From: an uncultured Chroococcidiopsis sp.
GTDB lineage: Bacteria > Cyanobacteriota > Cyanobacteriia > Cyanobacteriales > Chroococcidiopsidaceae
Direction of reading: 5' to 3'
Assembly: GCA_964248365.1 (NCBI GenBank)
Contig: CAXTYC010000048.1
Location: forward strand, 1 to 31,822
Length of the DNA: 31,822 nt
Positions 4,130 to 23,569 of this stretch are shown here, in pieces; within the stretch, counting starts at the first letter, position 1; the number at the start of each line of letters is the position of its first letter. The notes beneath the pieces are model-generated. The model was not told the DNA's origin and ran no database searches. It saw nothing but the letters and a program-made list of their open reading frames with translations. Both the position numbers and the translations under genes were made by a program.

Positions 4130-4190
4130 AAGGAGGGGGCTAGGGGTTTGTTGGGTGCGGGAAAATTTTTCTAATTAAAGTTTGAGTTTT

Positions 4191-4227
4191 GCATAAAATT
4201 TGCCCATAAAGTGCGAGAGATAAATAG
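4191..4227 (+). promoter_or_regulatory. Putative ECF-type promoter GCATAAA-N16-CGAG-N7-TAG upstream of the sigma-like gene
   Basis: GCATAAA at 4191-4197, CGAG at 4214-4217, TAG at 4225-4227; the same motif with the same spacing occurs at 19842-19806 (-). Confidence 0.55.
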
Positions 4228-4260
4228 AAGGTTGCATCAATTTGACGCTTTTGGGGGCAA

Positions 4261-4905
4261 ATGAATCAAATGGGTAGAGAAGAACTAGATGAGCAACTCG
4301 AACAGCTAGCACTCATTGCCCAACAGCATCCACAGGGGACACCAAAGCGCCAGCTAGCTTTAGGGCAGCTGGTTGGGATGATTTTGACATCAAATCGGCT
4401 TTGTCGTCCACAACGGGGGAATTTCGCCCATCGTTATGAAGAAATTTATGAGGAGGCAAGACAGGATCTCTTGTTTTATGTTTGCCAAAATATTGATAAG
4501 TATAATCCAGAACGTGGAGGGGTGATGGCATGGTGTAATGTTTTGCTAGAAAGGCGATTTTTTAGAGAAGCTATTCCAAAGGTTTTAGATAAGCAAGATA
4601 TTCAGAAAGTGACCATTACCGATTTAGATAATTTTGCTTTGCCTGAAGAGTCGCCAAGTCTAACAGAAGTCATTCAGGAATGTATAGCATTAGATCCTGA
4701 GAATTTGTTCAAAAATTCTTATATAGAAAACAATCCACAAGCTAATTTTCAAATTTTGACTCAGCAAAGATTAGCAGGAAAGTCTTGGAAAGATATTTCT
4801 GAAAGTTTTGGGATTAAGTTACCAACGCTTAGCAGTTTTTACTACCGTTGCTTAAATCGATTTGCTTCTTATTTAAAAGAATATTGTAGCAGAAATTTAA
4901 CTTAA
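4261..4905 (+). CDS. Sigma-70/ECF-like RNA polymerase sigma factor
   Basis: Region-2-like EEARQDLLFYVCQNIDKYNPERGGVMAWCNVLL; region-4 HTH GKSWKDISESFGIKLPTLSSFYYRCL; 214 aa. Confidence 0.8.
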   Translation: MNQMGREELDEQLEQLALIAQQHPQGTPKRQLALGQLVGMILTSNRLCRPQRGNFAHRYEEIYEEARQDLLFYVCQNIDKYNPERGGVMAWCNVLLERRFFREAIPKVLDKQDIQKVTITDLDNFALPEESPSLTEVIQECIALDPENLFKNSYIENNPQANFQILTQQRLAGKSWKDISESFGIKLPTLSSFYYRCLNRFASYLKEYCSRNLT

Positions 4906-4922
4906 ATTCACCTGACAAACCA

Positions 4923-5858
4923 ATGACGAAAGAATTATCAAATTTAACCTTTAACGTACCTTTGGGAGCAGAAGCTCATCGCCTAGCTCAACAGTTTTGT
5001 AGAAAACAAAGCGGCTCTAAAGTTAAACAAGTCTATCTCAATACTTTAGCAGTGTCTGCTGTCAATTTCTACCTGCAATGCATGGGAATTAAAACAAACT
5101 GGAAAGGTAGTTTAAGTTATTCTCTAGTATTGGGGTCACTTATGGATGTTGCCGATCTAGAAATTCCTAAAATAGGCAAGTTAGAATGTCGTCCAATTTT
5201 ACCACAAACAAATATACTTACTATCCCACCAGAAGTATGGTGCGATCGCCTTGCTTACCTAGCTGTAAGACTTGACTCTTCGCTTGAACAAGCAACACTG
5301 CTAGGATTTACTAAAAAGGCTCCAGAAAGTGGTGAGTTACCCATTAGCCAGTTGCATTCTCTCGAAGATTTTCTCGAATACTTGCATCAAATTAGACAAC
5401 TTCAACCAGCTACAATGCGGGTGAACCTCAGCCAATGGTTTGATCATGTTTTTACAGATAGTTGGCAATCGGTAGAAGCACTTTTAACTACACCAGAAAA
5501 TTTAGCCTTCAGCTTCAGGAGTGCTTCAAGATTGGGTGAAGCTGGTGTTAAAAGGGCGAAACTAATCGACTTGGGATTGCAACTAGCAAATCAGTCTGTA
5601 GCATTACTGGTGGCGATCGCGCCAGATGTCGATGACAAAGTGACTATTCTGGTACAATTACATCCAACGAATGCAGATTATCTGCCACCCGACATCAAAC
5701 TAATTCTACTCTCGGATGGCTCAACACTTCAACTTGTTGAATCTCGCACTGAGGATAACTACATTCAACTGAAACGATTTCGAGTTAACCCAAACGAATG
5801 CTTTGATATTCAAGTAGCTTTTGGTAATGTTAAAGTAACCGAGTCTTTCACCATCTAA
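4923..5858 (+). CDS. DUF1822 family protein
   Basis: Characteristic QVYLNTLAVSAVNFYL, GKLECRP, IPPEVW, VNLSQWF, RAKLIDLG and YIQL motifs; starts 17 nt after the sigma gene. Confidence 0.85.
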   Translation: MTKELSNLTFNVPLGAEAHRLAQQFCRKQSGSKVKQVYLNTLAVSAVNFYLQCMGIKTNWKGSLSYSLVLGSLMDVADLEIPKIGKLECRPILPQTNILTIPPEVWCDRLAYLAVRLDSSLEQATLLGFTKKAPESGELPISQLHSLEDFLEYLHQIRQLQPATMRVNLSQWFDHVFTDSWQSVEALLTTPENLAFSFRSASRLGEAGVKRAKLIDLGLQLANQSVALLVAIAPDVDDKVTILVQLHPTNADYLPPDIKLILLSDGSTLQLVESRTEDNYIQLKRFRVNPNECFDIQVAFGNVKVTESFTI

Positions 5859-5877
5859 TCGCTTTCCTTAGACGGCA

Positions 5878-8172
5878 ATGAATAAGTTGGTTGTCTTGAG
5901 CCTGGGAAATGGTAACTTGTATAACGGCTTTCCTACCGTTACTGCACAGGTTTGGGAACAAAGCGATCGACCAATCAAATTTACAGGCTGTTTACCAGCT
6001 TCCCCTGAAATTGCCGAACTATATAAATATTGGCAACTGCTATATTCTGCTCTCTATCAACGTCTCGATTTAAATCCTCGCATTGAAATTGATGCTGGAG
6101 ACGTGACTAATGTTTCTTCTGTTGAGTTTAGTCATTTGTGTGAGCGTTTGTCAAAGGAAATTAATATTTGGTTAAAATCTGAATCTTTTCGCCACATTGA
6201 GCAGCAATTACGCACATATTTGCACTCAGATGAAGAAATTCGATTCATTATTGAAACCAGCGACAATCTGCTAAAAAGATTGCCTTGGCATTTATGGCAA
6301 TTGTTTGAAGATTATCCCAAAGCGGAAGTTGCCTTAAGTGATACACAGTACCAAAAACCAAATAAATCAATTGCGAAGAAAACGAAATATAAAGTTAGAA
6401 TTTTAGCAATTTTTGGTAATAGTAAAGGAATCGATTTGAGAAAAGATCGATTTTTTTTAGAGCAATTATCGGACAAAGCAGAAATAAAATTCTTAGTAGA
6501 GCCGCGACTAGAGATTTTGCACGATCGCTTGTGGCAAGAATGGGATATTCTATTTTTTGCAGGTCATAGTTTCAGCAAAGAAAAAGGGATAATTCAGCTT
6601 AATCAAACTGAAGCGATCGCGCTTGACTCTTTAAAATATGCCTTGAAGAAAGCTATTAGCAAAGGATTAAAGCTAGCGATTTTTAACTCTTGTGATGGCT
6701 TAGGCTTGGCGCAGGCACTATTTGATTTACACATTCCCCAAGTTATAGTAATGCGAGAGCCAGTGCCAGACGTGGTGGCTCAAGAATTCTTAAAGCATTT
6801 TCTGGCGACATTTTCAAGTGGACAATCTTTATATGCTTCAGTGCGGGAAGCACGAGAAAGGCTACAAAAACTAGAGAATAAATATCCTTGCGCTACTTGG
6901 CTACCTGTAATTTGCCAAAATCCGGCACAAATACCGACTACTTGGCAAGAATGGTGTGGAACAAAAAGCCACTCGTTCAAAACCAGCAAGCAGCGTCTTC
7001 AAAAGATACTGCTGGCGAGTGTGGTGGTAACTGCTTTAATCATGGGAGTGCGCCAGCTAGGAATGCTACAAAGTTGGGAGTTGCAGGCTTTTGACTCTTT
7101 GATCCGGTTGCGATCAGATGAAAAGCCAGATCCACGCCTTTTGATAGTTACTGTAACTGAAGAAGATATTCAGAATCAGAATATCAAGGAAATGAGAAGT
7201 TTATCGGATGGTGCGTTAACGCAACTATTAAAGAAACTACAGCCATATCAACCGCAAGTTATTGGCTTGGATATTTATCGCAATTTCCCTGTAGATCCCA
7301 ACTATGCAAATTTAAAAACATATTTGCAGGATCGGCGCTTGATTGCTGTTTGCGAAGTTGGTGAAAACGATTATAAAGGAATTGGACACCCACCAGAAAT
7401 TCCACAAGATCAAATCAGTTTTAGCGATTTTCCAGTTGATAGCGATCGCGTCATTCGTCGTCAATTATTGGGTATGGCTCCCGATCCGAAGTCTTTTTGT
7501 TCAACAGATACATCATTTAGCTTCCGAGTCGCGCTAAATTATTTATCTAGCCTCGGCATTGAGTCTAAACTAACCCCAGAAAGAAACTGGCAAATCGGCA
7601 ATGTCGTTTTTAAGAAACTCGAATCTGATGCAGGCGGTTATCAGCAGTTAGATGCATTGGGATACCAAGTATTGCTCAATTACCGCTGCTCTAATTCTGT
7701 GGCAAAGCAAGTCAGTCTTTACGACATCTTAAGCGGTTCGCTTGATGCTGAATTACCTAATTTAGTTAAAAATAAAATCGTCTTGATTGGCACTACAGCC
7801 AAAAGCTTTAAAGATTATTTTACCACACCTTATAGCGCTGGTCAATCATCTGAGGAACTGCCTGGAGTGGTTATTCATGCAGAGATGGTGAGTCAGATTA
7901 TTAGTGCTGTATTGGATCGGCGAACAATGTTGTGGTGGCTACCTGGTTGGGGTGAAACGCTCTGGATCTGGAGTTGGTCTTTTGTGGGTGGTATATTGGT
8001 ATGGTTGCGATCGCCTGTACGTCTTGGCGGTGCGATCGTCTTTGCACTGATTATCTTATCTGGACTTTGCTTTGTTGTGTTGCTTTTGGGTGGTTGGATA
8101 CCACTCGTACCCTCAGCCTTGGCTTTATTACTCACTAGCGGTAGTTTAGTTGCTTATAAGATATTGCAGTAG
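5878..8172 (+). CDS. Membrane protein: N-terminal CHAT (caspase-like) domain, TM, CHASE2 sensor, 3 TM
   Basis: CHAT motifs LPWHLW, FFAGHS (His), IFNSCDG (Cys), VMREPVPD; CHASE2 motifs DPRLLIVTVTEEDI, IGLDIYR, KIVLIG, PGVVIHA; three C-terminal hydrophobic helices. Confidence 0.9.
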   Translation: MNKLVVLSLGNGNLYNGFPTVTAQVWEQSDRPIKFTGCLPASPEIAELYKYWQLLYSALYQRLDLNPRIEIDAGDVTNVSSVEFSHLCERLSKEINIWLKSESFRHIEQQLRTYLHSDEEIRFIIETSDNLLKRLPWHLWQLFEDYPKAEVALSDTQYQKPNKSIAKKTKYKVRILAIFGNSKGIDLRKDRFFLEQLSDKAEIKFLVEPRLEILHDRLWQEWDILFFAGHSFSKEKGIIQLNQTEAIALDSLKYALKKAISKGLKLAIFNSCDGLGLAQALFDLHIPQVIVMREPVPDVVAQEFLKHFLATFSSGQSLYASVREARERLQKLENKYPCATWLPVICQNPAQIPTTWQEWCGTKSHSFKTSKQRLQKILLASVVVTALIMGVRQLGMLQSWELQAFDSLIRLRSDEKPDPRLLIVTVTEEDIQNQNIKEMRSLSDGALTQLLKKLQPYQPQVIGLDIYRNFPVDPNYANLKTYLQDRRLIAVCEVGENDYKGIGHPPEIPQDQISFSDFPVDSDRVIRRQLLGMAPDPKSFCSTDTSFSFRVALNYLSSLGIESKLTPERNWQIGNVVFKKLESDAGGYQQLDALGYQVLLNYRCSNSVAKQVSLYDILSGSLDAELPNLVKNKIVLIGTTAKSFKDYFTTPYSAGQSSEELPGVVIHAEMVSQIISAVLDRRTMLWWLPGWGETLWIWSWSFVGGILVWLRSPVRLGGAIVFALIILSGLCFVVLLLGGWIPLVPSALALLLTSGSLVAYKILQ

Positions 8173-8189
8173 GGTGGGCATTGCCCACC
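8169..8189 (+). repeat. GTAG-type REP-like palindrome overlapping the stop codon of the CHAT-CHASE2 gene
   Basis: gtagggtgggcattgcccacc; stem ggtgggca/tgcccacc; its TAG is the gene's stop codon. Confidence 0.8.
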
Positions 8190-8241
8190 AAGTTATTTTT
8201 AACGAACCGCAGAGAACGCAGAGAACGCAGAGGTAAGAAAA

Positions 8242-8303
8242 GCGGAAAGTCGGGGTGTTTTTAGAGATGGGGTCTCCCCATCTCCTCCCGAACTTTCCAA
8301 GAC
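8242..8303. repeat. Small inverted-repeat element (gcggaaagt...aactttccaagac) with a nested palindrome
   Basis: Same ends as the element at 10906-10953; contains gagatggggtctccccatctc. Confidence 0.7.
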
Positions 8304-8423
8304 AAGAGAGATTTTCATGAATCATACGGGATTGTTGTAGTCAATAATGGTAGTTTGATTGCTTATCCGATATTGCAAGGTAAACAAGTGTAATTAAATA
8401 TATAAGAATTTGGTGCGCTACTG

Positions 8424-9296
8424 ATGCATTTGTCTCGATACGCACTTGCCTGCATTTTGGCATTTATCAGCTTCGCAAACCCATCCAGATTGTCCGCGCA
8501 ATCTCCAACCACTAATAACACATCCAAACCACCTAAGAGTACTTCCAAACCAACTAACAACATTCCCGATAGTAAACCACGCAGGCAACCACAAAGGCAG
8601 CAGCAGGAAAAAATTGATTTTTCTAGTTACGGTAGACCTGGAAATCGGGCAGGAGGAGGAAGCCGTAGCCCCTGCTCATCTACGAGTATACCTCTAACTG
8701 CCTTAATGCCTGAGTCTAACTGGGGAAAAACAGTTGCAGCTACACCGACTTTTTGGTTCTATGTTCCCTATTCTCCGACTGAAGCACGTTCGGGGGAATT
8801 TGTTTTGCAAGATGAAAAATACAATGATATCTACCGTACTCCTTTTACTTTGCCGCAAACGCCAGGTTTTGTTAGCTTAACCGTTCAGTCTCCTGAAGGA
8901 ACTCTCCAGACGGATAAGTGGTATTTTTGGTCTTTCAAGCTTTATTGCGGTCAAAAATCATCTACGCCTGTTTTTGTGGAAGGATGGGTGCAAAGAGTTG
9001 CATTAACAAGTCAACTTGAGCAACAGCTAAAAACAACAACAGAAGATTATGCGGTTTATTGGGCAGGGGGTATTTGGTACGATGCTGTAGATCGTCTTGC
9101 TAAGCTTCGTTTGGCTGATACGAAAAACGTTTTGCTCAATCGTGAATGGGTTGAGTTGTTGGAGTCAAGAGGTGTTGGTTTGAATCAGTTGGCGCAAGAG
9201 TCGATGGTTGGGGAGGTGAGATATTATTTAACGAACCGCCAAGACGCTAGCCTGGGGTTTAAACCCCAGGGAAGCGCGAAGGAAGGAAATAGGTAA
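8424..9296 (+). CDS. DUF928 domain exported protein
   Basis: Signal peptide; G(R)PGNRAGGGSR..C, LTALMP, PTFWFYVPY, GWVQRV, GIWYDA motifs. Confidence 0.88.
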   Translation: MHLSRYALACILAFISFANPSRLSAQSPTTNNTSKPPKSTSKPTNNIPDSKPRRQPQRQQQEKIDFSSYGRPGNRAGGGSRSPCSSTSIPLTALMPESNWGKTVAATPTFWFYVPYSPTEARSGEFVLQDEKYNDIYRTPFTLPQTPGFVSLTVQSPEGTLQTDKWYFWSFKLYCGQKSSTPVFVEGWVQRVALTSQLEQQLKTTTEDYAVYWAGGIWYDAVDRLAKLRLADTKNVLLNREWVELLESRGVGLNQLAQESMVGEVRYYLTNRQDASLGFKPQGSAKEGNR

Positions 9297-9304
9297 TTAC
9301 ATCC

Positions 9305-12172
9305 TCAAAGCCAGTTACCTACTAGAACGTAAGCAGCCCAGAAGTAAGGACGTTTCCAGTCTTGGCTTGGGTTTTTCCATAGGGATAGTTGGGCGCGTTG
9401 GAGTGCTTCAGCTTTGGTTAGATTGTGATCGCCTAAAGATTTGTAGAATTCATTCATGAGTGTAGCAGCAGAGCGATCGTCTACTGACCACAATGTTGCT
9501 AAGGTACTACGTGCGCCAGCTCGCACGGCTATCCCAGCTAGTCCTAAAGCGGCTCGATTGTCTCCTGCTGCTGTTTCACAAGCACTGAGGACGAGTAATT
9601 CGATCGCTCTAGACTTGTCCCAGTTACTATTTTTGATTAAATTATCCAAGTCAGTTATCTTTAGCAATCGATCCCAGGTGAGAATAAAGGTTTCGTCCAG
9701 GTTGGAACTGAATTGTCCGTGAGTTGCCATGTGAACTACGGAAAAGGGAGCCGAGTTGAGTTGATTTTGAATGTTTGTTGTAGTAAATTTATTGTTGAAT
9801 ATCTCCTTACTTTTTGGTACTTCAGATTGAATTTGCTTTAATTCCAATCTGGCGTTTTTAAGTTCGGGAAATTCTTGACCTTCAACTTTGCGTTTTTGAT
9901 CGAGTCCAGCAACCAAGACATTTAGCTTTTCCCTTTGCAAAGATTTGGGTTCTAATAGTTGTAAGCTTGGAGTTAAGGCGATCGCATATTTCTCTAAGAG
10001 ATACTTTTGCTGTTTGTTGTCGTATAAAACAGCCATCGGAATATTTCGCAAGGCACTATCTAGCACAAATACTAGTTTTTTAACCTGCGTTTTTTCTAAA
10101 TCAGCCTCAAGCGGTTGAATCAGCCAGCTATAAACGAGGGCAGATAATTTCTGCACGTCATTGGTTCGATCGGGTTCTCTTAAGTATTGTTGCAGTTGTT
10201 CTAGAGTTGTTTCTACTTCTGTGTTGGATATATTCGTCGCATAGTGACGCAGCGGTTGATTTGGTAACTTGAGGACGATCTCTAACCGTTGTGGCAATAT
10301 AATTGAATAGATAACGGATGTATAGCGATCGCCCAAGTCAACAACGCGATCGATCAGTTCTGGCTGAGGATTTAAACAAGCTGAACGAAAGAAATTTTCT
10401 AATTCTGCTAGCTGCAATGATTCAATTGTATTTCGAGCAAGCGTGAGATTCTCGTTTTCAGAAGGCGATTGCAATAGCAAGTCAACTAACTGGCGATAAA
10501 CTGGTTCGACTTCATCCCGAAAGTTAAACTGTACCTGTGGGTTAATTGCAACTAAATCTTTACGCAGGAATTCGAGGTTTTTAACTGCTTGGGAGTATGC
10601 TGCGATCGCATCGGGAATATTTCCCTGCTCTCTAAATATACGCCCTAACTGCCACTGCCAACGATATGCAATATCTGTTGCATCAATTGACTGTGCTAAA
10701 AACAAAGCTTCCTGGGTGAGTTTTTCAGCATCATTCCACTGTTGGGTTTGTTCGTACAAACTACCTAAACTACCCAAAGCATAAGCTTCTGCGCGCTTAT
10801 CTCCCAAACTTTTAGCCTGTTGCACTGCTGTAGATAAGATTTGAGCAACAGAAGAGGGGCTATATGAGGGGCTAGAGGCTAGGGGCTGGGGGTTAGGGAA
10901 ATTTTGCGGAAAGTTGGCGGTGTCGGTTTCCGTCCCGCCAAACTTTCCAAGACGGATTTTAGATTTTGGATTTTGGATTGTCAATTCCTCCCCTTGTCCC
11001 CCTTGTCCCCCTTGTCCCCCTTTTCCTCTAGTTCCTTCTTCCCTAGTCCCTAGCCCCAAGCCCCCAGCCCCTAACTTCATCAAACTTTGGGCAAAGTTAA
11101 TTTGAGCGTAAACAGCCGTTCGACTGGGTGGCAAGTTGGCAAGCCCAGCCTGGATTTGGGGATATAATACTTTAGCCCAATCCCATTGCTTTGTTTCTAC
11201 CAATAAGCTAAGTTGATTTAGCTGCGCTTGAAGGCGTGTAGTTGATGCAGATGCATCTTCTGCCTGCTGATAAAACTTTAAAGCAGCTTGGGTGTCTTTT
11301 TGGGCGCGGGCAGTGTTACCTAAACTAAGTAGAGTATCGCTGATAGCTTGGGAAGAATGCGATGCCGAAGGCGGTTCGCTTTGCGACCATCGCGTTGCCA
11401 CATTCAAACTTTCCTCTAATACCTGACGAGATGCTTTTAAATTGCCGACAACGCGAAAGACATTGCCAAGACTACGCAATCCTAACGCTTTAAGTTCAGA
11501 ATTTGGTTGTTTTTGCAGACTTTGTTGGACTTTTGTTAAAGTTTTCTCTGCTTGACGATAATGCCCCAGAGTTTGTAGAGCTTGAGCAGAATTGATTTGG
11601 TTACGGGTTAGCCCAGCATCATCTTTTAATTTTACATAAATATCAGCTGCTTGTCGCCAAGTAGTTAAAGCTAGTTCAGTTTTTCCTTGTGCCAATTGCA
11701 GACGACCTTGAATATCTAAAGCTTGGGCAAGAACATCAAGATTTTGGATTTTAGATTTTGGATTTTGGATTGCATCTCCTCTGCCCCTCTGCCCCTCTGC
11801 CCCTCTGCCCTTCTCCCCAGAATATCCCAGTAAATTGAGACAGGAGGCGATCGCCAATTGTGCTTTGTCCCACACTCCGAGTTGCTGATAAGCTAAGGAA
11901 AGATTGCTCAAGCTCAAGGCTTGGTTGAGTTTATCCCCAGAAGCTTTGAAGGAATTAACAGCTTGTTGCAAGAGTGCGATCGCAGAGGTATACTGTTCGG
12001 CATCGTAGAATTTTTTGCCTTGCTGCACCAATTGTTGGGCATTGGGATTTTGAACGATAGATTCCGCAGTTGTATAAGCAAGGGTGGGCGGCAATACTGC
12101 TGTGCATAATAATAGAACCAAAAATATTACGATTCTACTTTTACGAATAAATGTAGGCTGTTTTCTTCCCAT
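9305..12172 (-). CDS. Exported TPR-CHAT (HetF/caspase-like) protease
   Basis: N-terminal signal peptide; many TPRs; IESLQLAELENFF; catalytic HMATHG and LSACETA; LATLWSVDD; C-terminal PYFWAAYVLVGNWL. Confidence 0.92.
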   Translation of the reverse strand: MGRKQPTFIRKSRIVIFLVLLLCTAVLPPTLAYTTAESIVQNPNAQQLVQQGKKFYDAEQYTSAIALLQQAVNSFKASGDKLNQALSLSNLSLAYQQLGVWDKAQLAIASCLNLLGYSGEKGRGAEGQRGRGDAIQNPKSKIQNLDVLAQALDIQGRLQLAQGKTELALTTWRQAADIYVKLKDDAGLTRNQINSAQALQTLGHYRQAEKTLTKVQQSLQKQPNSELKALGLRSLGNVFRVVGNLKASRQVLEESLNVATRWSQSEPPSASHSSQAISDTLLSLGNTARAQKDTQAALKFYQQAEDASASTTRLQAQLNQLSLLVETKQWDWAKVLYPQIQAGLANLPPSRTAVYAQINFAQSLMKLGAGGLGLGTREEGTRGKGGQGGQGGQGEELTIQNPKSKIRLGKFGGTETDTANFPQNFPNPQPLASSPSYSPSSVAQILSTAVQQAKSLGDKRAEAYALGSLGSLYEQTQQWNDAEKLTQEALFLAQSIDATDIAYRWQWQLGRIFREQGNIPDAIAAYSQAVKNLEFLRKDLVAINPQVQFNFRDEVEPVYRQLVDLLLQSPSENENLTLARNTIESLQLAELENFFRSACLNPQPELIDRVVDLGDRYTSVIYSIILPQRLEIVLKLPNQPLRHYATNISNTEVETTLEQLQQYLREPDRTNDVQKLSALVYSWLIQPLEADLEKTQVKKLVFVLDSALRNIPMAVLYDNKQQKYLLEKYAIALTPSLQLLEPKSLQREKLNVLVAGLDQKRKVEGQEFPELKNARLELKQIQSEVPKSKEIFNNKFTTTNIQNQLNSAPFSVVHMATHGQFSSNLDETFILTWDRLLKITDLDNLIKNSNWDKSRAIELLVLSACETAAGDNRAALGLAGIAVRAGARSTLATLWSVDDRSAATLMNEFYKSLGDHNLTKAEALQRAQLSLWKNPSQDWKRPYFWAAYVLVGNWL

Positions 12173-12282
12173 TTTCTAGCTCTTGCTTGCCCTTATGCGT
12201 AAGCGTTGCGTAGACGTTGTTATCGCCACCAATTTAATATAAATACCCTTGACAAATTTATATATCACTGCATATAGTTCGA

Positions 12283-15078
12283 TTACTTTGCATGACATTT
12301 AGCTGGTGTCTGCTTGGAATTACCTGGTAATACGGGAGTAGCAGAGGCTGTAAGGATAACATTGCCATTGTTAGCGATCGTCCAGCCAGTAGCTTCTAGG
12401 ATAGAATCTGGCTCAGGTGTGGTTATATTTGTGGAAACACCTTGGTTGCGGTTTTCTACTTTTGGATTGAGAGTTACCCAATCAACCTGTACAGCATCAC
12501 TGCTGAGCGTTTCGTCTGGACTAGGAGGCAAGCCGCCGCGACCTGTGACCACAAATTCGCTTTGTGCTTGATTTCCACTCGGTTGACAAGTCTGTGCTAC
12601 CCTAGCTTCAACTAGCTGGACTGGCAGGTTTATTAGCCCACTATTAGGTTCAATGCCTGGTGTATTGATGTCTACTACGCCGTTTACTCCAAACTGGGAA
12701 CTGGCAGTAATGTCACTTTCTGGAGTTAGTTGTGAATGGTACTTTAGTCCATAGATGCCTTGGGCAGTGATGTTGATGTTTCCTCCCCGACCTTGAAAGG
12801 CATTGGCAGTGATGTCGCTGTCTTCAATAGGGACAGCAACGATGAAGCCATTAGGAGCATTGATGGTGATATTACCGCCGTCTCCTCCTTTCTGGCCTGT
12901 GCCTGCATTCGTAGAAATTCGACTACCCTGACGCAGCAGCAGGATGTCTCGCAGCTTTATCCCAATCTCACCACCTTGAGTACTAAATGTTTCTGCTGAA
13001 ATCTGCCCTTGATTCTTAAGGATTAAACTGCCAGCCTGAACGTCAATTTTGCCTCCTTGTCCATTTCCTTGACTATTAACTGCTATTTCGGCACCGCCTT
13101 GAAGCGTCAATTTGCCGGAATTAATGACAATATCACCGCCAAAGCCTTCTGTGTTGGGGTCGGTGTTAGCAAACAGCCCGCTGACAGCACCTAAATTGCT
13201 AACACTGCCTCCATTTCGGCTGTCTCCAAATTTAGTGAGTCGGTCATCGTAGGTAGGGTCACTACCAGAAAGGGTAGCGCTACCAGTAATGTTGAGAGTT
13301 ATATTGCCTGCTTTTCCACTGTTATAAGTTCTTGTAATTATTTGTCCACCATTAGTTGCTTCAAAGGTATCTGCATTGATGGTGAGGCTACCTCCAGGTT
13401 TGGAGTTGTTAGTTTGAGCTTCTACAATTGCTCCATCAGCTACACGAAACGAGCCTGTACTAACTGTAGCTTTGCCTGCTGCTCCTGCGGTGTCATTTAT
13501 ACTTGCGACACCTATTAAGCTAGAAAATCCATTGTTTCCTACCCCCTGTAAAAAAACAGTATCCGGGGCATTGATATTCACATTGCCTGCATTTCCTTGA
13601 CCTCTAGTGATGGCAAGCAGTTGAGCACCATTGGTAACAGAAAGCGACCTGGTGCTGATGCGGATCTCCCCACCTTGTCCTCTGCCAGTTCTGCCCACGT
13701 CACTGAAGGCATCACTACCAGAACTACCATCGCTACTTCTGCCATCGAAGGAGACGCGATCGTGGGCATCGATGATGATATTCCCTGCATCACCCTCTCC
13801 ATCGGTACTGGCAACCAATTGAGCGCCGTTTGTAAGTGAAAGTTCCCTGGTGCTGATGCGAATGTCTCCACCCTTTCCTATGCCAGTCTTATCAACAGAG
13901 CTGAAGATAGCAGTGGAATAATTAGGATCGCTACCTTTGCCATCCAAGGAGACGTGATCGCGGGCATCAATAATAATATTTCCTGCATTCCCTTGACCAA
14001 GGGTACTGGTACTCAGTTGAGCGCCTTTTGTAAGTGTGAGTTCCCCAGTGCTGATGCGGATATTGCCACTGTTGCCCGTAGCTCCTGATACCACCCTATT
14101 TGTAAACAAACTGTTATTAGTAAGGTTTATTGTTCCTGTAGCGTTAACTTCTATATCCCCTGCTTGAGAGCCAACAGAACCCAACCCTGAACCTATCCCC
14201 GCCCGCAGCCTACTTTCTCCTGCCAGATTCAAGTTTTGGGCATTGACTGCAATACTTCCACCGCCGCTAGCACGTACATTCACATCAGCGCCATTATTAA
14301 GGAATACGTCTGCTCGTGGTAAACCATCAGGAAAATTCAAACGCAGATCGCTATTATCAACATTCAGCCCTACAGTTCCCGATCCTGCCACACTTCCCAA
14401 CTCGACACGCCCGCCAGGAGCAAAGATTTTCCCACCCTCTAAGCTGACATTGCCACCTACTAATAACAAACTCTTGCCTTGAGGTACTTGTAACCCCCTT
14501 GAGTCAGCTGTAGAACGATTGACAATCTCTTGTGTCTTAAGTTGATTAAAAAGCAATGCATTCGGATTCACATTCAACAGTTTTGTGGGCAGGGGTGCTT
14601 GTGGATTAGTACTAAAAATATCTCCATTAGTTAATCCAATCCCATTAGCTGTTGTTCCAACAAACGAACCTTTAACATCTAAACTTGCATTTTGTCCAAA
14701 AATAATCCCATTCGGGTTAATCAAAAATAGGTTGGCATTGCCTAATACTCCCAGCTTGCCAAGTATTTGAGAGGGATTACCTCCTGTAACTCTACTCAAG
14801 ATGTTCTCAATTCCAGTAGGGTTGGTAAAATAGACCGATCGCCCTTCACCGACATTAAATTCCCCAAAACTGTGAAACAGGTTAGCGCCTCTAGTTGCGC
14901 CGCCGTTGATAGAGTCAACCGATCCTGTTGATTTAACTGTAGAATTTTCATTACCCAATGTGTTATCAGGTATAACCTGGGCATAAGCGCAATTTGCCCA
15001 AGTGTTAGCGAAGCTTAACGAAGTTATCGCACCACTCATCACTAAAGTCGCTAACCCTAGTTTCCAGCTTTGAATCAT
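12283..15078 (-). CDS. Filamentous haemagglutinin N-terminal-domain (TpsA-like) beta-helix exoprotein
   Basis: Signal peptide ending AYA-Q; NLFHSFGEFNV, NILSRVTG, NPNGIIFG; Gly-rich GGNI.I repeats including three 198-bp units (gtgctgatgcg at 13652, 13850, 14048); C-terminal FVVTGRGGLPPSP and EATGW. Confidence 0.9.
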   Translation of the reverse strand: MIQSWKLGLATLVMSGAITSLSFANTWANCAYAQVIPDNTLGNENSTVKSTGSVDSINGGATRGANLFHSFGEFNVGEGRSVYFTNPTGIENILSRVTGGNPSQILGKLGVLGNANLFLINPNGIIFGQNASLDVKGSFVGTTANGIGLTNGDIFSTNPQAPLPTKLLNVNPNALLFNQLKTQEIVNRSTADSRGLQVPQGKSLLLVGGNVSLEGGKIFAPGGRVELGSVAGSGTVGLNVDNSDLRLNFPDGLPRADVFLNNGADVNVRASGGGSIAVNAQNLNLAGESRLRAGIGSGLGSVGSQAGDIEVNATGTINLTNNSLFTNRVVSGATGNSGNIRISTGELTLTKGAQLSTSTLGQGNAGNIIIDARDHVSLDGKGSDPNYSTAIFSSVDKTGIGKGGDIRISTRELSLTNGAQLVASTDGEGDAGNIIIDAHDRVSFDGRSSDGSSGSDAFSDVGRTGRGQGGEIRISTRSLSVTNGAQLLAITRGQGNAGNVNINAPDTVFLQGVGNNGFSSLIGVASINDTAGAAGKATVSTGSFRVADGAIVEAQTNNSKPGGSLTINADTFEATNGGQIITRTYNSGKAGNITLNITGSATLSGSDPTYDDRLTKFGDSRNGGSVSNLGAVSGLFANTDPNTEGFGGDIVINSGKLTLQGGAEIAVNSQGNGQGGKIDVQAGSLILKNQGQISAETFSTQGGEIGIKLRDILLLRQGSRISTNAGTGQKGGDGGNITINAPNGFIVAVPIEDSDITANAFQGRGGNINITAQGIYGLKYHSQLTPESDITASSQFGVNGVVDINTPGIEPNSGLINLPVQLVEARVAQTCQPSGNQAQSEFVVTGRGGLPPSPDETLSSDAVQVDWVTLNPKVENRNQGVSTNITTPEPDSILEATGWTIANNGNVILTASATPVLPGNSKQTPAKCHAK

Positions 15079-15206
15079 CCCTAATGCCTCTAGCTTGAAA
15101 CAGTCTTTACGCGAACCACAGCCGATCGCCTATCAGAATAAAAGGAAAGTGAACCCTAAAACGATAAAGATAGTTAAGAATAGTTGCGTAGATATGCATT
15201 TACCCG

Positions 15207-16586
15207 TTACACATCTGCAATCAGCCTTGCCTTTCTCAGAAAGAATTGCAGTACAGTTTCTTCTCTTGAGATAATATCGGCTGTACCTTCCATGCCCAAT
15301 TGGATCGCACACTGATGTTCGCCTCTACCTAAAGTAAGATTTTCTGGCTCAATCGTTACCTGATAAAAGGAAGCAACAGCCGCTTTTTGGCTTGCATCTG
15401 TTGTCGCGGCGCTATTTGCACCATTTGCTTGGGGAGTAATTGCATCTGGGGAAATCGCCTTAACCTTACCTTTGAGAGTGCCGTAATCAGGATAAGGACA
15501 GGCAGAAACGCGCATTTGTACGTTTTGACCTGCTTTCAATTTGTTTTTATCCCCAAGTGCGACGGCTGCCTTTATAACTATAGGTGCATTACTTGGGACA
15601 ATTTCAGCAATTTCCTCGCCTGCGCTGACTGTTTGACTGTTGTTGCGTAGTTTCAGCCGTGAGATTATACCATCAGAGGTTGCAGTAATAACAGTGCGAC
15701 CGAGTTCAATATTTACTTGTCCTAGTTCGCGGCTATCCCCATCTAGCTGTTTTTGAATTTCAATTCTTTGACCGATCAAAGCATCTCGTTCTTTATTTAA
15801 TGTAGCAATGTTAGCTGTTCCTGTCGCTTTTTCTTGGGCGATGCGTGAAGAAGCGATCGCAACTTCTGCATTACTCGGATTAAGGAGGGCGATCGCGTGA
15901 TGCAACTTGGCTTTAGCCGCCGAAACTGCTTGTGATTGCTGGCGGACAGCTAGTTGTGCTTCCTCAAATTGATCTTGAGACAAAGCACCAACTTTTGCTA
16001 CACTTGCGTATCGGTTGCGTTTTGTCTGGGCTGCTTTCAGACCAGCCTCGGCTGCTTTTACATTCGCTTGTGCTTCCTCAACATCAGTGGCGGTAGTAGT
16101 TTGTTTGTCTTGATATTCTCGACTACGACCGCTTAATTCAGCTTCCGCCGCAGCGACAACGCGATCGCTTTTTTCAGTTTCGGCGCTTATTTGCCGATTA
16201 AGGGCATTGATCTGACCGTTGATTTGAACGAGTTGTAATTTCTGAAGCTGTATACTATTTTGCAGTTGACTTTTTTTGGTTTGCAAGCGGGAATCGTCAA
16301 TAGTTGCGATCGCATCTCCGGTTTTAACCGTTTGATTCTCTTTGACCGAGATACTCATAATCGAACCTTCCGTTGCAGCGTTAACAATCCGCAACTCACC
16401 AGTCGGTCGAACATTCGCCTCTGCTTTGACCGTCACCTTATATTTAACCACAGAGGCAAGCGCGATCGCTATTACCATTGCACCGAGCATAACCATTCCG
16501 CCGAAAGTAGTCCAACGACCGAGTGGTGGAAGAAACTCGTTATCTTGAACTTGAGGTAGATAGTCTGAATTGGAGTGACTAATCAT
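15207..16586 (-). CDS. HlyD-family periplasmic adaptor of a type I exporter
   Basis: N-terminal TM, lipoyl-like VKENQTVKTGD, long coiled coil, ACPYPDYGTLKGKVKAISPD, GMEGTADII. Confidence 0.93.
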   Translation of the reverse strand: MISHSNSDYLPQVQDNEFLPPLGRWTTFGGMVMLGAMVIAIALASVVKYKVTVKAEANVRPTGELRIVNAATEGSIMSISVKENQTVKTGDAIATIDDSRLQTKKSQLQNSIQLQKLQLVQINGQINALNRQISAETEKSDRVVAAAEAELSGRSREYQDKQTTTATDVEEAQANVKAAEAGLKAAQTKRNRYASVAKVGALSQDQFEEAQLAVRQQSQAVSAAKAKLHHAIALLNPSNAEVAIASSRIAQEKATGTANIATLNKERDALIGQRIEIQKQLDGDSRELGQVNIELGRTVITATSDGIISRLKLRNNSQTVSAGEEIAEIVPSNAPIVIKAAVALGDKNKLKAGQNVQMRVSACPYPDYGTLKGKVKAISPDAITPQANGANSAATTDASQKAAVASFYQVTIEPENLTLGRGEHQCAIQLGMEGTADIISREETVLQFFLRKARLIADV

Positions 16587-16637
16587 CAGAGTAGGGGTGA
16601 GGGATGAGGGGTGAGGGGTAACTGCTAACTGCTAACG

Positions 16638-16862
16638 GCTAATTACTTACTGCTTTAAGCTAATTGCTTTCTGCTTTGAGCTAATTGCTTACTAAAAACA
16701 GCTAATTGCTTTCTGCTTTGAGCTAATTGCTTACTGAAAACACGTAATTGCTTACTGAAAACACGTAATTGCTTACTGAAAACACGTAATTGCTTACTGA
16801 AAACAGCTAATTGCTTACTGCAAACACTTAATTGCTTACTGAAAACAGCTAATTGCTTACTG
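16638..16862. repeat. 21-bp tandem repeat array, about 10.7 units (consensus gctaattgcttactgaaaaca)
   Basis: Units start every 21 nt from 16638 to 16848; two tail variants (gctttga and gaaaaca); flanked by short STRRs. Confidence 0.95.
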
Positions 16863-16962
16863 GTAATCGGTAATGGCAGGTGGAGTATAGTTGATGGTTG
16901 ATGGTTCAATGCAATGAACAATGAACACTACTCACTACTCACTACTCACTACTGACTACTCA

Positions 16963-19149
16963 CTACCAACTACCACTAACAACCAAACCATTTGTTGATG
17001 GGAGAAAATCGTCTAGAAAGTCCAAGTGTTCGCCAGCCATGTGACGCAGAGTTTCTGGAGTGCCTTGAATTTTCAATTTCCCTTCTTCTAGCAGTACAAT
17101 CCAATCAGCCCGTTGGATAACTTTCGGGCGATGACTGATCGTAATTGTGGTTTTGCCCTGTCTATGGTATAACAATCTATCTAAAACTTCCGCTTCACTG
17201 ACTGGATCGAGAGCGCCTGTAGACTCATCTAAAATAAGTATGGGTGGATCGGTGACAATGGCTCTAGCGATCGCTAATCTCTGTTTTTGACCACCAGACA
17301 AATTCGCGCCAAATTCTCCCAAAACAGTTTGATACTTATCCGGCAATTTACTGATAAATTCATCTGCACCAGCTATTTGACAAGCGAGGACAATTTGTTC
17401 AAAACTAATATCAGGATAGCTAAAGCGGAAGTTATCGACGATTGAGCGACTCCAAAAGTGGGGTTCTTGTGGGACTAATACCACCTGTTGGCGCAGACAT
17501 TCTACCGAGAGGTCTTGCTGATTGTATATGCCATAGCGGATATTACCAGACTGACAGAAATATAAACCAGCAATCAGTTTGGCGAGGGTACTTTTACCAC
17601 AACCGGATTTACCAATCAAGGCAATAACTTTACCGCCAGGGATATTCAGGGAAAAATCTTCAAGCAAGTCAACTCTACCTGCATGATGAAAATTGAGATT
17701 GGTGCAGATAATATCTGTATTGTTGGGAATTTCAGCCCAAGGCTTTTTCTCGTCTTTTTCATCTTCTGGGGTAGCGTCAATCACTTCCGTCAGACGTTGA
17801 ATCACAATCTGGGCAGTGATAAACTCATCAACTAAGCCGATGGCTGCGCTCAAAAAGCCAAGAAAGTTGCCACTCATACCGCTAAACGCTAGCAACTGAC
17901 CAATGCTGAGGGTACGATTAATCACTAAGTACGAGCCTATCCAAAGTAAGGCAATACTAGTAAAATTAGAGAGAATACCAGTGATTGTGCTACTGTAAAG
18001 CCCCAATTTCATCGTACTCCAGCCCAAATTAGCCAGCCGACCAAAATTAGTTTGATATTCTTGCCAAGCTTGCCCAGTGGCTTGGGTAGTCTTTAGCACC
18101 TGGACACCGCGAAATGTTTCCACCAAAAAGCCTTGGTTTTCTGTACCTAAGACAATTTGGTTACGAGTTTTTTGGCGCAAGGCTGGGAGAAACAGCAGGT
18201 TAACTATTGTGACAATGATAAACGCAGCGATGGAAGCCAGAGTCAGTCCCCAGCTGTAGAACAGCATAAAGCCCAAGGACACTATGGCGATGAAAAACTG
18301 GCTGGGTAAACCAAGGACGATTTGGGAAACTAAGGCATTGATATGACTAACATCAGCAATGCGACTGACAACTTCCCCGCTACGTCGTCCTTCAAAATAA
18401 GTCAGGGGTAAGTGCAGAAGTTTTCGCCCGTATTCCAGCAGCAGCCCTAATTGTAGCCGTTGACCAAAGTGACCGATTAGGTGAGACTGGACTAAATTAA
18501 TGGCACTTCTAAATAAGTTCATAGCTATAACACCAATTGCCACAGTTGTCAACAATTGGGGATCTCCTCTCACCAAAACGTCATCGGTGAGAAGTTGCAT
18601 CATCAAAGGCGAGGCGAGGGACAATAAACCAACAGCTATGTTAATTGCGATCGCCTGAGCCAAAATAGACCGATAGGGCAATACTCGCTTGAGATAACGC
18701 CCAAAACCGCCAACCTTATCATCTTGCTGCTCGTAAAAACGGCTATCGTCTGGTGTCAGCAGCAGCATGATACCATTACCCCAACCGAGGACTAACTCCT
18801 CGCGGGTAAGGTAACGGATGCCAACACCAGGGTCAGAAATTACAAATTTTTTCCCTTTTTGCCCGTATAAAACTACCCAGTGATAGCCTTTCCAGTGAAT
18901 GATAGCTGGAAGGGGTGCTTTGTGCAAAGAGTCAAGTATTTGAGCAGAGGCTTTAACTTGGCGGGCATGAAATCCAAGGGCTTCTGCACCCCGCTTCAAC
19001 CCTAGTAAAGTCGTTCCCCGCGATCCCGTGCCAACAGCTTCTCGTACTCGACCTATGGCAAAGGTGCGTTTGTAGTGTTTGGCAACAGTGGCAATGCAGG
19101 CAGCACCACAGTCTTCTTCACTGTGTTGTAGAACAATTTTGTATTTCAT
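16963..19149 (-). CDS. Peptidase-containing ABC transporter (C39 peptidase, ABC membrane domain, ATPase)
   Basis: QHSEEDCGAAC (catalytic Cys), HWVV..D; Walker A GKSGCGKS; signature LSGGQKQR; Walker B ILILDE. Confidence 0.96.
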   Translation of the reverse strand: MKYKIVLQHSEEDCGAACIATVAKHYKRTFAIGRVREAVGTGSRGTTLLGLKRGAEALGFHARQVKASAQILDSLHKAPLPAIIHWKGYHWVVLYGQKGKKFVISDPGVGIRYLTREELVLGWGNGIMLLLTPDDSRFYEQQDDKVGGFGRYLKRVLPYRSILAQAIAINIAVGLLSLASPLMMQLLTDDVLVRGDPQLLTTVAIGVIAMNLFRSAINLVQSHLIGHFGQRLQLGLLLEYGRKLLHLPLTYFEGRRSGEVVSRIADVSHINALVSQIVLGLPSQFFIAIVSLGFMLFYSWGLTLASIAAFIIVTIVNLLFLPALRQKTRNQIVLGTENQGFLVETFRGVQVLKTTQATGQAWQEYQTNFGRLANLGWSTMKLGLYSSTITGILSNFTSIALLWIGSYLVINRTLSIGQLLAFSGMSGNFLGFLSAAIGLVDEFITAQIVIQRLTEVIDATPEDEKDEKKPWAEIPNNTDIICTNLNFHHAGRVDLLEDFSLNIPGGKVIALIGKSGCGKSTLAKLIAGLYFCQSGNIRYGIYNQQDLSVECLRQQVVLVPQEPHFWSRSIVDNFRFSYPDISFEQIVLACQIAGADEFISKLPDKYQTVLGEFGANLSGGQKQRLAIARAIVTDPPILILDESTGALDPVSEAEVLDRLLYHRQGKTTITISHRPKVIQRADWIVLLEEGKLKIQGTPETLRHMAGEHLDFLDDFLPSTNGLVVSGSW

Positions 19150-19176
19150 AGTTTAGAACTTACGCACAGGAGAAAG

Positions 19177-19204
19177 TGCGATCAAGGCTTTTGCCCCGAT
19201 CGCA
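19177..19204 (-). terminator. Stem-loop / probable weak intrinsic terminator between the cargo gene and the transporter
   Basis: Minus strand tgcgatcggggc-aaaa-gccttgatcgca (12 bp with 2 G-U pairs) followed by ctttctcct. Confidence 0.55.
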
Positions 19205-19330
19205 TTTAGTATTCAGTGTGTCAGAGAAGCTTGACCCTACTTAAAAATGAGTAGCATAAAGATCGCTCTAACTAAATTTTTCAATGCAGAAGTCGGACGA
19301 GACTAACGACGAAAAGCTAAAGCCATCTCG

Positions 19331-19726
19331 CTAGTAGGTGATCCGCCCTGCAATGTCGAAGGCACGGTAACCGCTGTCACCCTCAAAGTCGAGCTTGAAG
19401 GGGGTGTTATCGCGCACGTCCGCTGCAACAGTGAAGACTCCGTCGATGTTTGCAGGAATAGTCCTCTGGTAACTGCTTATATCAGTGCCATCGGGACGCA
19501 CAGCTTTAACCTTCACGTCATACGGGTGCTTAGTCAATCGAATTGAAATGTCGTTGAATTGGCTAGTGGTGGTATACACCTTTGGGAATGTCTTTGATCC
19601 GAATGCCGGAACTCTGCCTGCGATAGGTGATAAGGCTCCTCCTGTTATAGAAGCAGAATTGTTATCTGAAATTTCTTCAAACAGAGGGGCTTCGGTCAAC
19701 TGTTGTTCATGCTGATTGTCTTTCAT
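19331..19726 (-). CDS. Double-glycine-leader secreted protein (30-aa leader + 101-aa mature domain), likely substrate of the adjacent exporter
   Basis: Shine-Dalgarno AGGAG before ATG 19726; leader ...PLFEEISDNNSASITGG then ALSPIAGR...; lies directly upstream of the C39 transporter. Confidence 0.85.
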   Translation of the reverse strand: MKDNQHEQQLTEAPLFEEISDNNSASITGGALSPIAGRVPAFGSKTFPKVYTTTSQFNDISIRLTKHPYDVKVKAVRPDGTDISSYQRTIPANIDGVFTVAADVRDNTPFKLDFEGDSGYRAFDIAGRITY

Positions 19727-19805
19727 CTTTTTCTCTCCTATTGAAGTGTGAATGATTCTGTGATGTTTCGAGTTGGCAAACTGCAAAACCTGTTGTTTTG
19801 TGTTG

Positions 19806-19842
19806 CTAGTTCTTACTCGGAGGGTTACGCCTTGGTTTATGC
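19806..19842 (-). promoter_or_regulatory. Putative ECF-type promoter GCATAAA-N16-CGAG-N7-TAG upstream of the cargo/exporter operon
   Basis: Minus strand GCATAAA (19842-19836), CGAG (19819-19816), TAG (19808-19806); matches 4191-4227. Confidence 0.55.
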
Positions 19843-20017
19843 CAAATGTCAGTTCTTGTAATATTCCTTAACAAATTGACTCGGATGCAGCCCGTTGTAT
19901 CCCCAGCCGCGCCCCCACAGCAGGCTAAAAAGGGCAGGTTTTACCTGACAGTAAAGAGCCAAAAGGATTTAAGATCCATACACTAGCCTCAGTTTTTGCC
20001 AGGGTGGGAAACGCTTT

Positions 20018-23000: not shown

Positions 23001-23569
23001 AAGCAGCACAAATCATGGCTCCAATTAACTTAAGCGATTTGGGCGATGTGGGTGAAGATACGCTGTTGAGTGCTGTCGTGATGCTGACGAGTATCAAGCC
23101 AGTGACGACAAAAAAAGGCGATCGCATGGCGATCGTACAAATAGAAGACTTGACAGGACAAACAGAAGCAGTCGTCTTCCCCAAGGCTTACGAACGGATT
23201 GGATCTTTATTGGTAGAAGATACGCGAATGATTGTTTGGGGCAAAGTAGATCGCCGAGACGATCAACTACAGCTAATTGTAGAGGATGCAGAGCCAATTG
23301 AAAACGTCCAGATGGTGATGGTGGAACTAACCCCCCAACAAGCAGGGACGTTTGAAGAACAGAACCGTCTGGGAGGAATTTTGCAAGAACAGATAGGCGA
23401 GAAAGAAAAAGCTAAAGTTCCCGTATTTGGAATTATCACGGCTGCAAATCGCCGTCAAATTGTCCGATTTGGGCGCTCATTTTGGGTACAGGATGGTTTT
23501 GCTGCTGTGGAAGCGCTCAAAGCAGCGAGATTCCCCGCTCATGTGCAACCCCTCGTTAGTCAGGTATGA
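20018..23569 (+). CDS. dnaE: DNA polymerase III subunit alpha, contiguous and intein-free
   Basis: PHP motifs [11 protein letters not shown] and [33 protein letters not shown]-terminal OB fold; 1183 aa. Confidence 0.98.

Follow-up and report, generated by a model that had tools for sequence, protein, structure and literature searches.

The locus described here lies in a stretch of 31,822 nucleotides (nt) from an uncultured Chroococcidiopsis sp. (GenBank assembly GCA_964248365.1, contig CAXTYC010000048.1, positions 1 to 31,822 of the forward strand), which was analysed as a whole and is called the window below. Nine genes are arranged there in two converging arms (Table 1). The plus arm carries the genes for a divergent extracytoplasmic function (ECF)-type sigma factor, a DUF1822 protein, a CHAT protease with a CHASE2 domain and a DUF928 protein, and we propose that these may form a proteolytic switch in which the protease would release the sigma factor from DUF1822. 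The minus arm carries the genes for a small cargo protein with a double-glycine (GG) leader, a peptidase-containing ABC exporter, an HlyD-family adaptor, a TpsA-like exoprotein and a second, putatively exported CHAT protease with TPR repeats (TPR-CHAT). An earlier note on this DNA, hereafter the original prediction, had described nine contiguous genes in two convergent arms. All nine open reading frames (ORFs) are found where it had placed them, with the arms ending at 9296 and 9305, and Pfam and NCBIfam models assign DUF1822, CHAT plus CHASE2, DUF928, TPR plus CHAT, TPS, HlyD and C39 plus ABC domains. The word contiguous has to be qualified: gaps of 251 base pairs (bp) and 376 bp separate the CHASE2 gene from the DUF928 gene and the C39 gene from the HlyD gene, respectively.

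Table 1. Genes and sequence elements of the locus; positions are those of the window (aa, amino acids; TM, transmembrane segment).
Feature	Position	Strand	Evidence
Bipartite promoter-like element of sigma operon	4187..4228	+	GCATAAA 4191-4197, 16 nt, CGAGA 4214-4218
Divergent ECF-type sigma factor, 214 aa	4261..4905	+	TIGR02937 E 4e-4; SigK profile match E 2e-4; structure model
DUF1822, candidate anti-sigma	4923..5858	+	Pfam E 4e-70
EACC2-like region, CHAT, TM, CHASE2 and C-terminal TMs, 764 aa	5878..8172	+	Pfam CHAT 202-341, CHASE2 384-706
DUF928, signal-peptide-like N-terminus	8424..9296	+	Pfam E 2e-55
Exported (predicted) TPR-CHAT protease, 955 aa	9305..12172	-	Pfam TPR, CHAT E 7e-62; hydrophobic N-terminus 14-32
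TpsA-like exoprotein	12283..15078	-	PF05860 E 1e-57; TIGR01901
HlyD-family adaptor	15207..16586	-	TIGR01843 E 3e-46
Peptidase-containing ABC exporter	16963..19149	-	Pfam C39, ABC_membrane, ABC_tran; C39 residues C14, H90, D106
12-bp hairpin between cargo and exporter	19177..19204	-	Region z -2.8
GG-leader cargo: 30-aa leader and 101-aa mature domain, unnamed secreted family	19331..19726	-	
Second, weaker promoter-like copy before cargo	19805..19846	-	GCATAAA 19842-19836, 16 nt, CGAG

The conservation of this arrangement was assessed at two sets of other sigma loci. Set 1 holds 55 loci, 40 of them taken from 58 foreign matches to a single sigma query, and set 2 holds 60 of 156 matches to a sigma profile, or 58 once two duplicates are removed. 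DUF1822 is present at 54/55 loci of set 1 and 54/58 of set 2, and it follows the sigma gene in 108 of the 113 loci, also where no CHAT gene is adjacent. An EACC2-like plus CHAT gene occurs at 49/55 and 43/58 loci, and a CHASE2 domain at 46/55 and 23/58. For the loci with at least 15 kilobases (kb) of downstream sequence, a second CHAT gene together with TpsA is found at 18/32 loci in set 1 and 14/50 in set 2, and a convergent CHAT gene at 18/32 and 10/50. On these neighbourhood counts the two arms, which the original prediction had joined into one module, co-occur widely but not obligately. The single query detected the sigma family itself in 32 of 41 relatives, and the profile detected it in 81 of the 121 genomes sampled from the order. 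This genome has six DUF1822 genes, each directly behind a sigma-like ORF, with one of the six assignments made only via similarity to another. A second full module is located on its contig C9 (G000:C9:524-13479, L106), where ShlB and a small TPR-like gene are present and an exporter is not.

By its predicted fold, the 214-residue protein belongs to the ECF-type sigma factors, which agrees with its earlier designation as sigma-like. The AlphaFold model (predicted local distance difference test score, pLDDT, 91) aligns with the sigma2 domain of E. coli sigmaE (Z 10.6, root-mean-square deviation (rmsd) 2.4 over 91 residues) and with that of SigC (Z 10.0), and all 50 structural-alignment rows are sigma factors or complexes thereof. 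These alignments are a re-examination of Foldseek matches, none of which reached E 0.001; Foldseek gave no match at E of 0.001 or below for either the sigma factor or DUF1822, and a family missing from such lists is not thereby excluded. In the region where sigma4 would lie the model has C-terminal helices, and full-length alignments to sigma factors give a high rmsd. In profile searches the protein remains below the curated TIGR02937 cut-off (20.1 versus 42.9 bits).

The element upstream of the sigma gene was examined by de novo motif discovery. A Gibbs sampler applied to 41 non-redundant foreign upstream regions recovered a bipartite motif of 18.5 bits, compared with 12.6-12.7 bits in shuffles. 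With a matrix of this motif (class A) built from 27 sites of other genomes, this genome being left out, the site before the sigma gene ranks first among 11.15 million genome positions at 35.2 bits; the next-best site in the genome reaches 22.6 bits, and block-shuffled DNA never exceeds 22. These results suggest that GCATAAA-N16-CGAG is a promoter-like element and the predicted self-promoter of the sigma factor, in line with the self-induction that the original prediction had envisaged. The sigma paralogue on C9 has a motif of its own (class B, GCATAATT ... CTGATAA), whose site likewise ranks first in the genome (38.7 bits) with a matrix built from 9 foreign sites. In a tree of 65 sequences, motif class tracks sigma clade, with 10 of the 11 class-B sigmas falling into one clade (support 0.997), an agreement that fits promoter specificity or plain descent alike. 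A class-A site of at least 18 bits precedes 18/58 sigma genes of set 2 (20/60 with duplicates), and a class-B site precedes one.

It is also conceivable that some other regulator or sigma factor binds the motif, and that our sigma-like protein has its targets elsewhere or does not work as a sigma factor. The sub-threshold TIGR02937 score and a sigma4 domain that is not separately confirmed by structure would be in keeping with this, and descent alone could make the motif class vary together with the sigma clade. We nevertheless judge this explanation quite improbable, given that two paralogues in one genome each have a best site of a different class, and that the spacing of 16-17 nt is that of sigma promoters such as those reported for HetZ (PMC13342950).

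If the sigma factor does recognise this motif, further copies near the sigma gene would mark its targets. Extra copies scoring at least 16 bits number 20 in 13 of the 30 class-A loci of set 1, or 21 per million positions, compared with 3.3 per million at 16 class-B loci, 16.7 at 8 unclassified loci, 1.8 at 16 C39 loci that are unlinked and 2.4 across this genome. In set 2 there are 24 in 14 of 20 class-A loci (33 per million; 3 of the copies come from a duplicate locus) versus 7.6 per million at the other 40 loci. Since the loci were grouped according to the site next to the sigma gene, and related loci are not independent of each other, these comparisons are not formal tests. The extra copies are mostly intergenic and lie before genes for TpsA, TPR-CHAT, EACC2-CHAT, large repeat proteins and proteins with signal peptides. 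Two further observations concern the motifs. A gene of about 80 codons without a Pfam family recurs divergent from the sigma gene and behind a strong motif copy (L037:9353-9604, L055, L136, L137, L155). An ORF distantly related to the HetZ family (in L118) has the genome's second-best class-B site (28.4 bits; G000:C3:257959, minus strand) 265 bp ahead of it, which makes a sigma cascade possible. This genome has two such distant HetZ-family ORFs, neither of them followed by patU.

The position of the DUF1822 gene just behind the sigma gene resembles that of an anti-sigma factor, and the original prediction had cast the protein in this role. The protein may also contain a cleavage site. Its model (pLDDT 90) consists of an alpha/beta N-domain resembling the PD-(D/E)XK fold, a linker and a beta-sandwich C-domain. 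The linker includes the motif [FLYW]R in 97 of 113 DUF1822 homologues, versus 21.5% in shuffles, most commonly as FR followed by S; here it reads AFSFR-S, which makes R199 a candidate cut site. On the basis of gene position and this motif, DUF1822 is a candidate anti-sigma factor. That it might be a TPR protein is unsupported by the secondary structure of the model. The linker Arg motif is missing in two DUF1822 proteins encoded beside a protease of caspase type rather than CHAT type (L045:10663-13959, Pfam C14; L110:3112-6353, by motif), and it is possible from these two cases that cut site and protease type covary.

The protease encoded next retains the catalytic pair of CHAT domains, H230 and C272, in 30/30 aligned CHAT-CHASE2 proteins, and the corresponding residues of TPR-CHAT, H818 and C865, are invariant in 23/23; both alignments comprise subsets of full-length homologues plus paralogues from this genome. 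The claim that both CHAT domains keep their His and Cys is thus well founded. From hydropathy, CHAT is predicted to be cytoplasmic and CHASE2 periplasmic. A single TM lies ahead of CHASE2 and at least two follow it; two of the latter are clear, and the third C-terminal TM of the original prediction is weaker. A conserved N-terminal region of about 165 residues, putatively an EACC2 domain and here called EACC2-like, precedes CHAT in 92 of the 113 loci. The C-terminus is variable, being CHASE2 here and STAND-WD40 or a periplasmic binding protein in the paralogues of this genome. DUF928 follows this variation, as its gene is found at 62 of the 63 EACC2-CHAT loci with CHASE2 versus none of the 20 without it. 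This pattern, which upholds the tie between the two that had been predicted, makes DUF928 a probable periplasmic partner of CHASE2. A CHASE2-DUF928 neighbourhood is mentioned in PMC5587647. No solved relative of CHAT-CHASE2 or of the cargo was found by sequence, and the ESM Atlas returned only unnamed matches below 0.9 for the cargo and DUF928.

A different view of the same genes, put forward by Kaur et al. in section 9 of PMC8195603, is that they serve in conflict or immunity. According to this view, the sensor triggers self-cleavage of EACC2-CHAT, DUF1822 serves as adaptor, nuclease-fold effector or co-activator, and the sigma factor is a parallel output. The high variability of the C-terminal sensor domains is in its favour, and so is the fold of the DUF1822 N-domain, which aligns, with modest scores, to I-Ssp6803I (Z 8.5, with an rmsd of 3.1 over 115 residues) and Hjc (Z 8.1) and has D78 conserved in 40/45 and E88 in 44/45 aligned proteins. 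The variable cargo described below also recalls polymorphic systems. However, the position of the catalytic Lys in DUF1822 is occupied by Arg in 38/45 proteins and by Lys in none. Replacement of this residue is known from inactive nuclease folds. Moreover, DUF1822 follows the sigma gene at nearly all loci, even without an adjacent CHAT gene, and the genes behind extra motif copies resemble, by eye, surface or secreted proteins rather than defence effectors. We consider a conflict function rather unlikely.

Returning to the proteolytic switch, its possible cue is suggested by the TPR-CHAT and TpsA genes of the minus arm. Export of TPR-CHAT is inferred from its hydrophobic N-terminus, and most of its homologues have a signal-like start as judged by hydropathy. 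Besides its TPS domain, the TpsA-like protein has repeats and a conserved C-terminal region in which two Cys residues form a pair. The locus lacks a TpsB gene, and a single ShlB-type gene was found in the genome, in the paralogous C9 cluster; TpsB is present or fused in 21 of the 113 other loci. Single-chain TpsA-TpsB proteins (L054, L058, L138, L139, L144) and TPS-CHAT fusions (L170, L171, L179, L193) were also observed.

The remainder of the minus arm encodes a secretion system. The exporter has the attributes of a peptidase-containing ABC transporter, namely the Cys, His and Asp of a C39 peptidase, ABC and membrane domains, an HlyD adaptor and a substrate with a GG leader. Within the window, to which this observation is limited, a TolC-type outer-membrane channel is absent. 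The probable start of the cargo gene is the ATG at 19726, which gives a protein of 131 aa in line with homologues. The cargo has no Pfam or NCBIfam family, no match in 60 related genomes and 24 matches among 1.84 billion representatives. Its mature domain, from A31 onwards, is seen behind both GG leaders and signal peptides of the Sec type, in support of the boundary assigned to the leader and of secretion. In congeners the cargo domain is exchanged for beta/gamma-crystallin and other domains, and beta/gamma-crystallin domains appear as cargo of a like exporter or leader in the relatives L086, L088 and P0024. The hairpin behind the cargo gene is inferred to be a terminator or stabiliser, and the gap between the C39 and HlyD genes is filled by tandem repeats (11.6 copies of a 21-bp repeat, window 16619-16862). 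Sigma70-consensus promoters and terminators occur at chance level.

The original prediction had placed exporter and cargo within the module. C39/HlyD genes are near the sigma gene at 3/55 loci of set 1 and 0/58 of set 2, and these three loci differ in arrangement: the order is the same in G004, a member of the genus, while another locus has the genes upstream and the third has them facing the other way. In a further congener, G005, the whole cluster can be pieced together from four contigs whose ends overlap, with an identity of mostly 82-89%. Given that C39/HlyD is rare at other sigma loci and has the same order only in the congeners G004 and G005, we consider the exporter a genus-level accessory and reject it as a core member (3/113 other sigma loci). 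A similar helix-turn-helix gene with a motif-like site of 13-18 bits is present in all three C39-linked sigma loci (L038:3327-3887, L047:6808-7320, L086:9231-9860).

Whether the sigma factor would control even this accessory depends on the site before the cargo gene. The original prediction was right that both arms have the motif, at 4191 on the plus strand and 19842 on the minus strand with a spacing of 16 nt at both, but the copy before the cargo gene is a moderate match only. Its score of 12.8 bits places it 33rd of 4375 genes; an 81-site matrix that leaves out this genome (G000), G005 and the window-type locus of G004 gives 15.4 bits and rank 12. The sigma module might operate as proposed and C39, HlyD and cargo simply be inherited along with it as neighbours, the whole being an island of genes for secretion. 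This cassette would then have a promoter of its own, and the likeness to the motif would have arisen by chance and been kept by shared descent. The rarity of C39/HlyD near sigma genes and the different arrangement of 2/3 such loci agree with this explanation, as does the distribution of this exporter subfamily, which has one to five mostly unlinked members per genome in 22 of 41 relatives. That the three supporting genomes belong to one genus, and hence are not independent, also counts for it. Against it, the cargo site is correct in strand, spacing and position, belongs to the top 0.3-0.8% of genes and is the best minus-strand site in the window. The orthologous sites of G005 (18.9 bits) and G004 (18.6 bits) precede other cargo genes, a different one in each genome, so that the site stays while the cargo is replaced; at the unlinked, 86%-identical exporter of G004 no site exceeds 8.5 bits. 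The locus of another genome, G014, is cut off by a contig end. We regard co-inheritance as possible if somewhat unlikely, and this judgement concerns the exporter part only; the conservation of the cargo site favours, without proving, control by the sigma factor.

With these observations in mind, we assign a probability of about 0.5 to the proposal that the locus encodes a proteolytic ECF switch with one sensor, whose regulon consists of secreted proteins that can be plugged in. CHASE2 and periplasmic DUF928, whose pairing is evident from co-occurrence and whose binding is presumed, would read an envelope cue, which, judging from linkage and fusions, probably concerns the TpsA exoprotein and exported TPR-CHAT. 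The cytoplasmic CHAT domain would then be activated and cut DUF1822 after R199, as the conserved site and the precedent of HetF and PatU3 suggest. Until cut, DUF1822 would keep the sigma factor inactive, a role proposed from gene order. The freed sigma factor would recognise GCATAAA-N16-CGAG, amplify its own operon and drive whichever neighbours carry a copy of the motif. In this genus one recruited target would be the C39/HlyD exporter with its exchangeable small GG-leader protein, as an accessory output.

Several observations weigh against this proposal. Strong sites in this genome are no commoner than in shuffled DNA, that of the sigma factor itself excepted, and 39 of the 60 sigma loci of set 2 have no class-A or class-B site of at least 18 bits, several of them showing weaker copies. 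For the cargo site, 159-235 genome positions score about equally to its 12.8-15.4 bits, and no site lies directly before the TpsA, TPR-CHAT, HlyD or C39 genes in the window. The hairpin and the 376-bp gap interrupt the minus arm, and therefore a single transcript of it is not assured. TPR-CHAT and TpsA accompany the sigma gene in only 32 of the 82 loci with at least 15 kb downstream. As for DUF1822, its nuclease-like N-domain with conserved D78 and E88 allows another role, 16 of 113 homologues lack [FLYW]R, and the motif is kept in 13 of the 15 that have no adjacent EACC2-CHAT. Homology of DUF1822 to PatU was undetected (hhalign 0.5%, shallow PatU alignment), and only the C-terminal strand-rich regions of the two line up. 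Among public RNA runs, only one contains a small share (0.05) of the stretch, which is no evidence on expression.

A bolder version of the switch, which we regard as speculative and probably wrong in some part, is that cyanobacteria have a large family of such caspase-gated ECF switches, which monitor the secretion of their own exoprotein. TPR-CHAT would process the C-terminus of TpsA, DUF928 would present the product to CHASE2, and CHAT would cut DUF1822, which would be a dead nuclease fold and a new class of anti-sigma factor; promoters would be clade-specific, with the output rewired by promoter copies placed ahead of any cassette for secreted proteins. If true, two caspases would form a relay that spans the inner membrane, and CHASE2 would gain a protein ligand.

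Outside the locus, DnaE is encoded by one seemingly uninterrupted ORF of 1183 aa (window 20018-23569). In many cyanobacteria dnaE is split and intein-bearing.

The core of the locus has been catalogued before. EACC2-caspase systems with an ECF sigma factor and DUF1822 were described computationally by Kaur, Iyer, Burroughs and Aravind in 2021 (PMC8195603), who proposed caspase activation by autoproteolysis and the sigma factor as output, and the locus resembles these systems in combining a conserved N-terminal region (putatively the constant domain), a caspase-like domain and a variable C-terminus, including TM-CHASE2, beside the genes for an ECF sigma factor and DUF1822. The statement of the original prediction that the module had no mechanistic description is therefore not tenable, and the same logic has experimental support in the HetF-PatU3-HetZ circuit. 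In contrast to the TPR label given to DUF1822 in PMC8195603, our model is alpha/beta plus beta-sandwich; the main text of that paper is without DUF928, hemagglutinin or ShlB, and its section 9 is without promoter or exporter. DUF1822 is merely listed in the relevant part of PMC9679502. In the literature searched, from which subscription journals are mostly missing, we found no experimental study of the sigma/DUF1822/CHAT-CHASE2 system, no promoter for it and no CHASE2 ligand.

The closest functional parallel is found in Anabaena PCC 7120, where HetF is reported to cut PatU3 between R117 and S118 (PMC9457339), and where HetZ, for which an E. coli system has been published, is described as an ECF sigma factor inhibited by PatU3 (PMC13342950). 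Both circuits have a membrane CHAT protease with intact His and Cys and a periplasmic domain, an Arg site in the inhibitor (a candidate one here, known from sequence), an inhibitor gene just behind that of an atypical ECF sigma factor, and a promoter spacing of 16-17 bp. In the texts cited, the HetF circuit differs in that its sensor is TPR rather than CHASE2 and its motif is TCCGGA; here protease, inhibitor and sigma factor share one operon, and the predicted outputs are secretion genes. Profile comparison detects no homology, the sigma factor having no NF037963 (HetZ family) match and hhalign giving 1.5% against HetZ (PatU and HetZ profiles drawn from 13-14 genomes), and thus the likeness is one of logic, not descent. 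A second parallel is type III-E CRISPR, where Csx29, a CHAT protease, cuts the sigma inhibitor Csx30 and thereby starts transcription (PMC10028731). The Csx29-Csx30-CASP-sigma pathway is triggered by target RNA via Cas7-11, as outlined there, whereas TPR-CHAT looks exported and is not Csx29 (NF041237 17 bits versus a cut-off of 300), and no Cas7-11-sized or Cas-like ORF was seen in the window's ORF list. The exporter finds its counterpart in Synechococcus elongatus, where the cysteine-peptidase transporter PteB exports the GG proteins EbfG1-4 in biofilm formation (PMC4997328). Both pair a C39-ABC exporter that has its active-site Cys with a small GG-leader protein; unlike what is given for EbfG1-4, the cargo here consists of a folded domain of 101 aa that belongs to an unnamed family, and it lies behind the sigma factor's motif.

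Compared with these systems, what appears to be new is a clade-specific promoter-like motif with a predicted local secretion regulon, an Arg as candidate cleavage site within a DUF1822 that is not of TPR type, and an exporter that would have joined this regulon at genus level. The predicted promoter, the candidate site R199 and the fixed partner DUF928 make a catalogued gene neighbourhood experimentally approachable, CHASE2 is a common sensor, and the sigma family extends through most sampled genomes of the order. If our reading is true, the logic of HetF-PatU3-HetZ would be a general cyanobacterial device for envelope and secretion control, beyond heterocysts.

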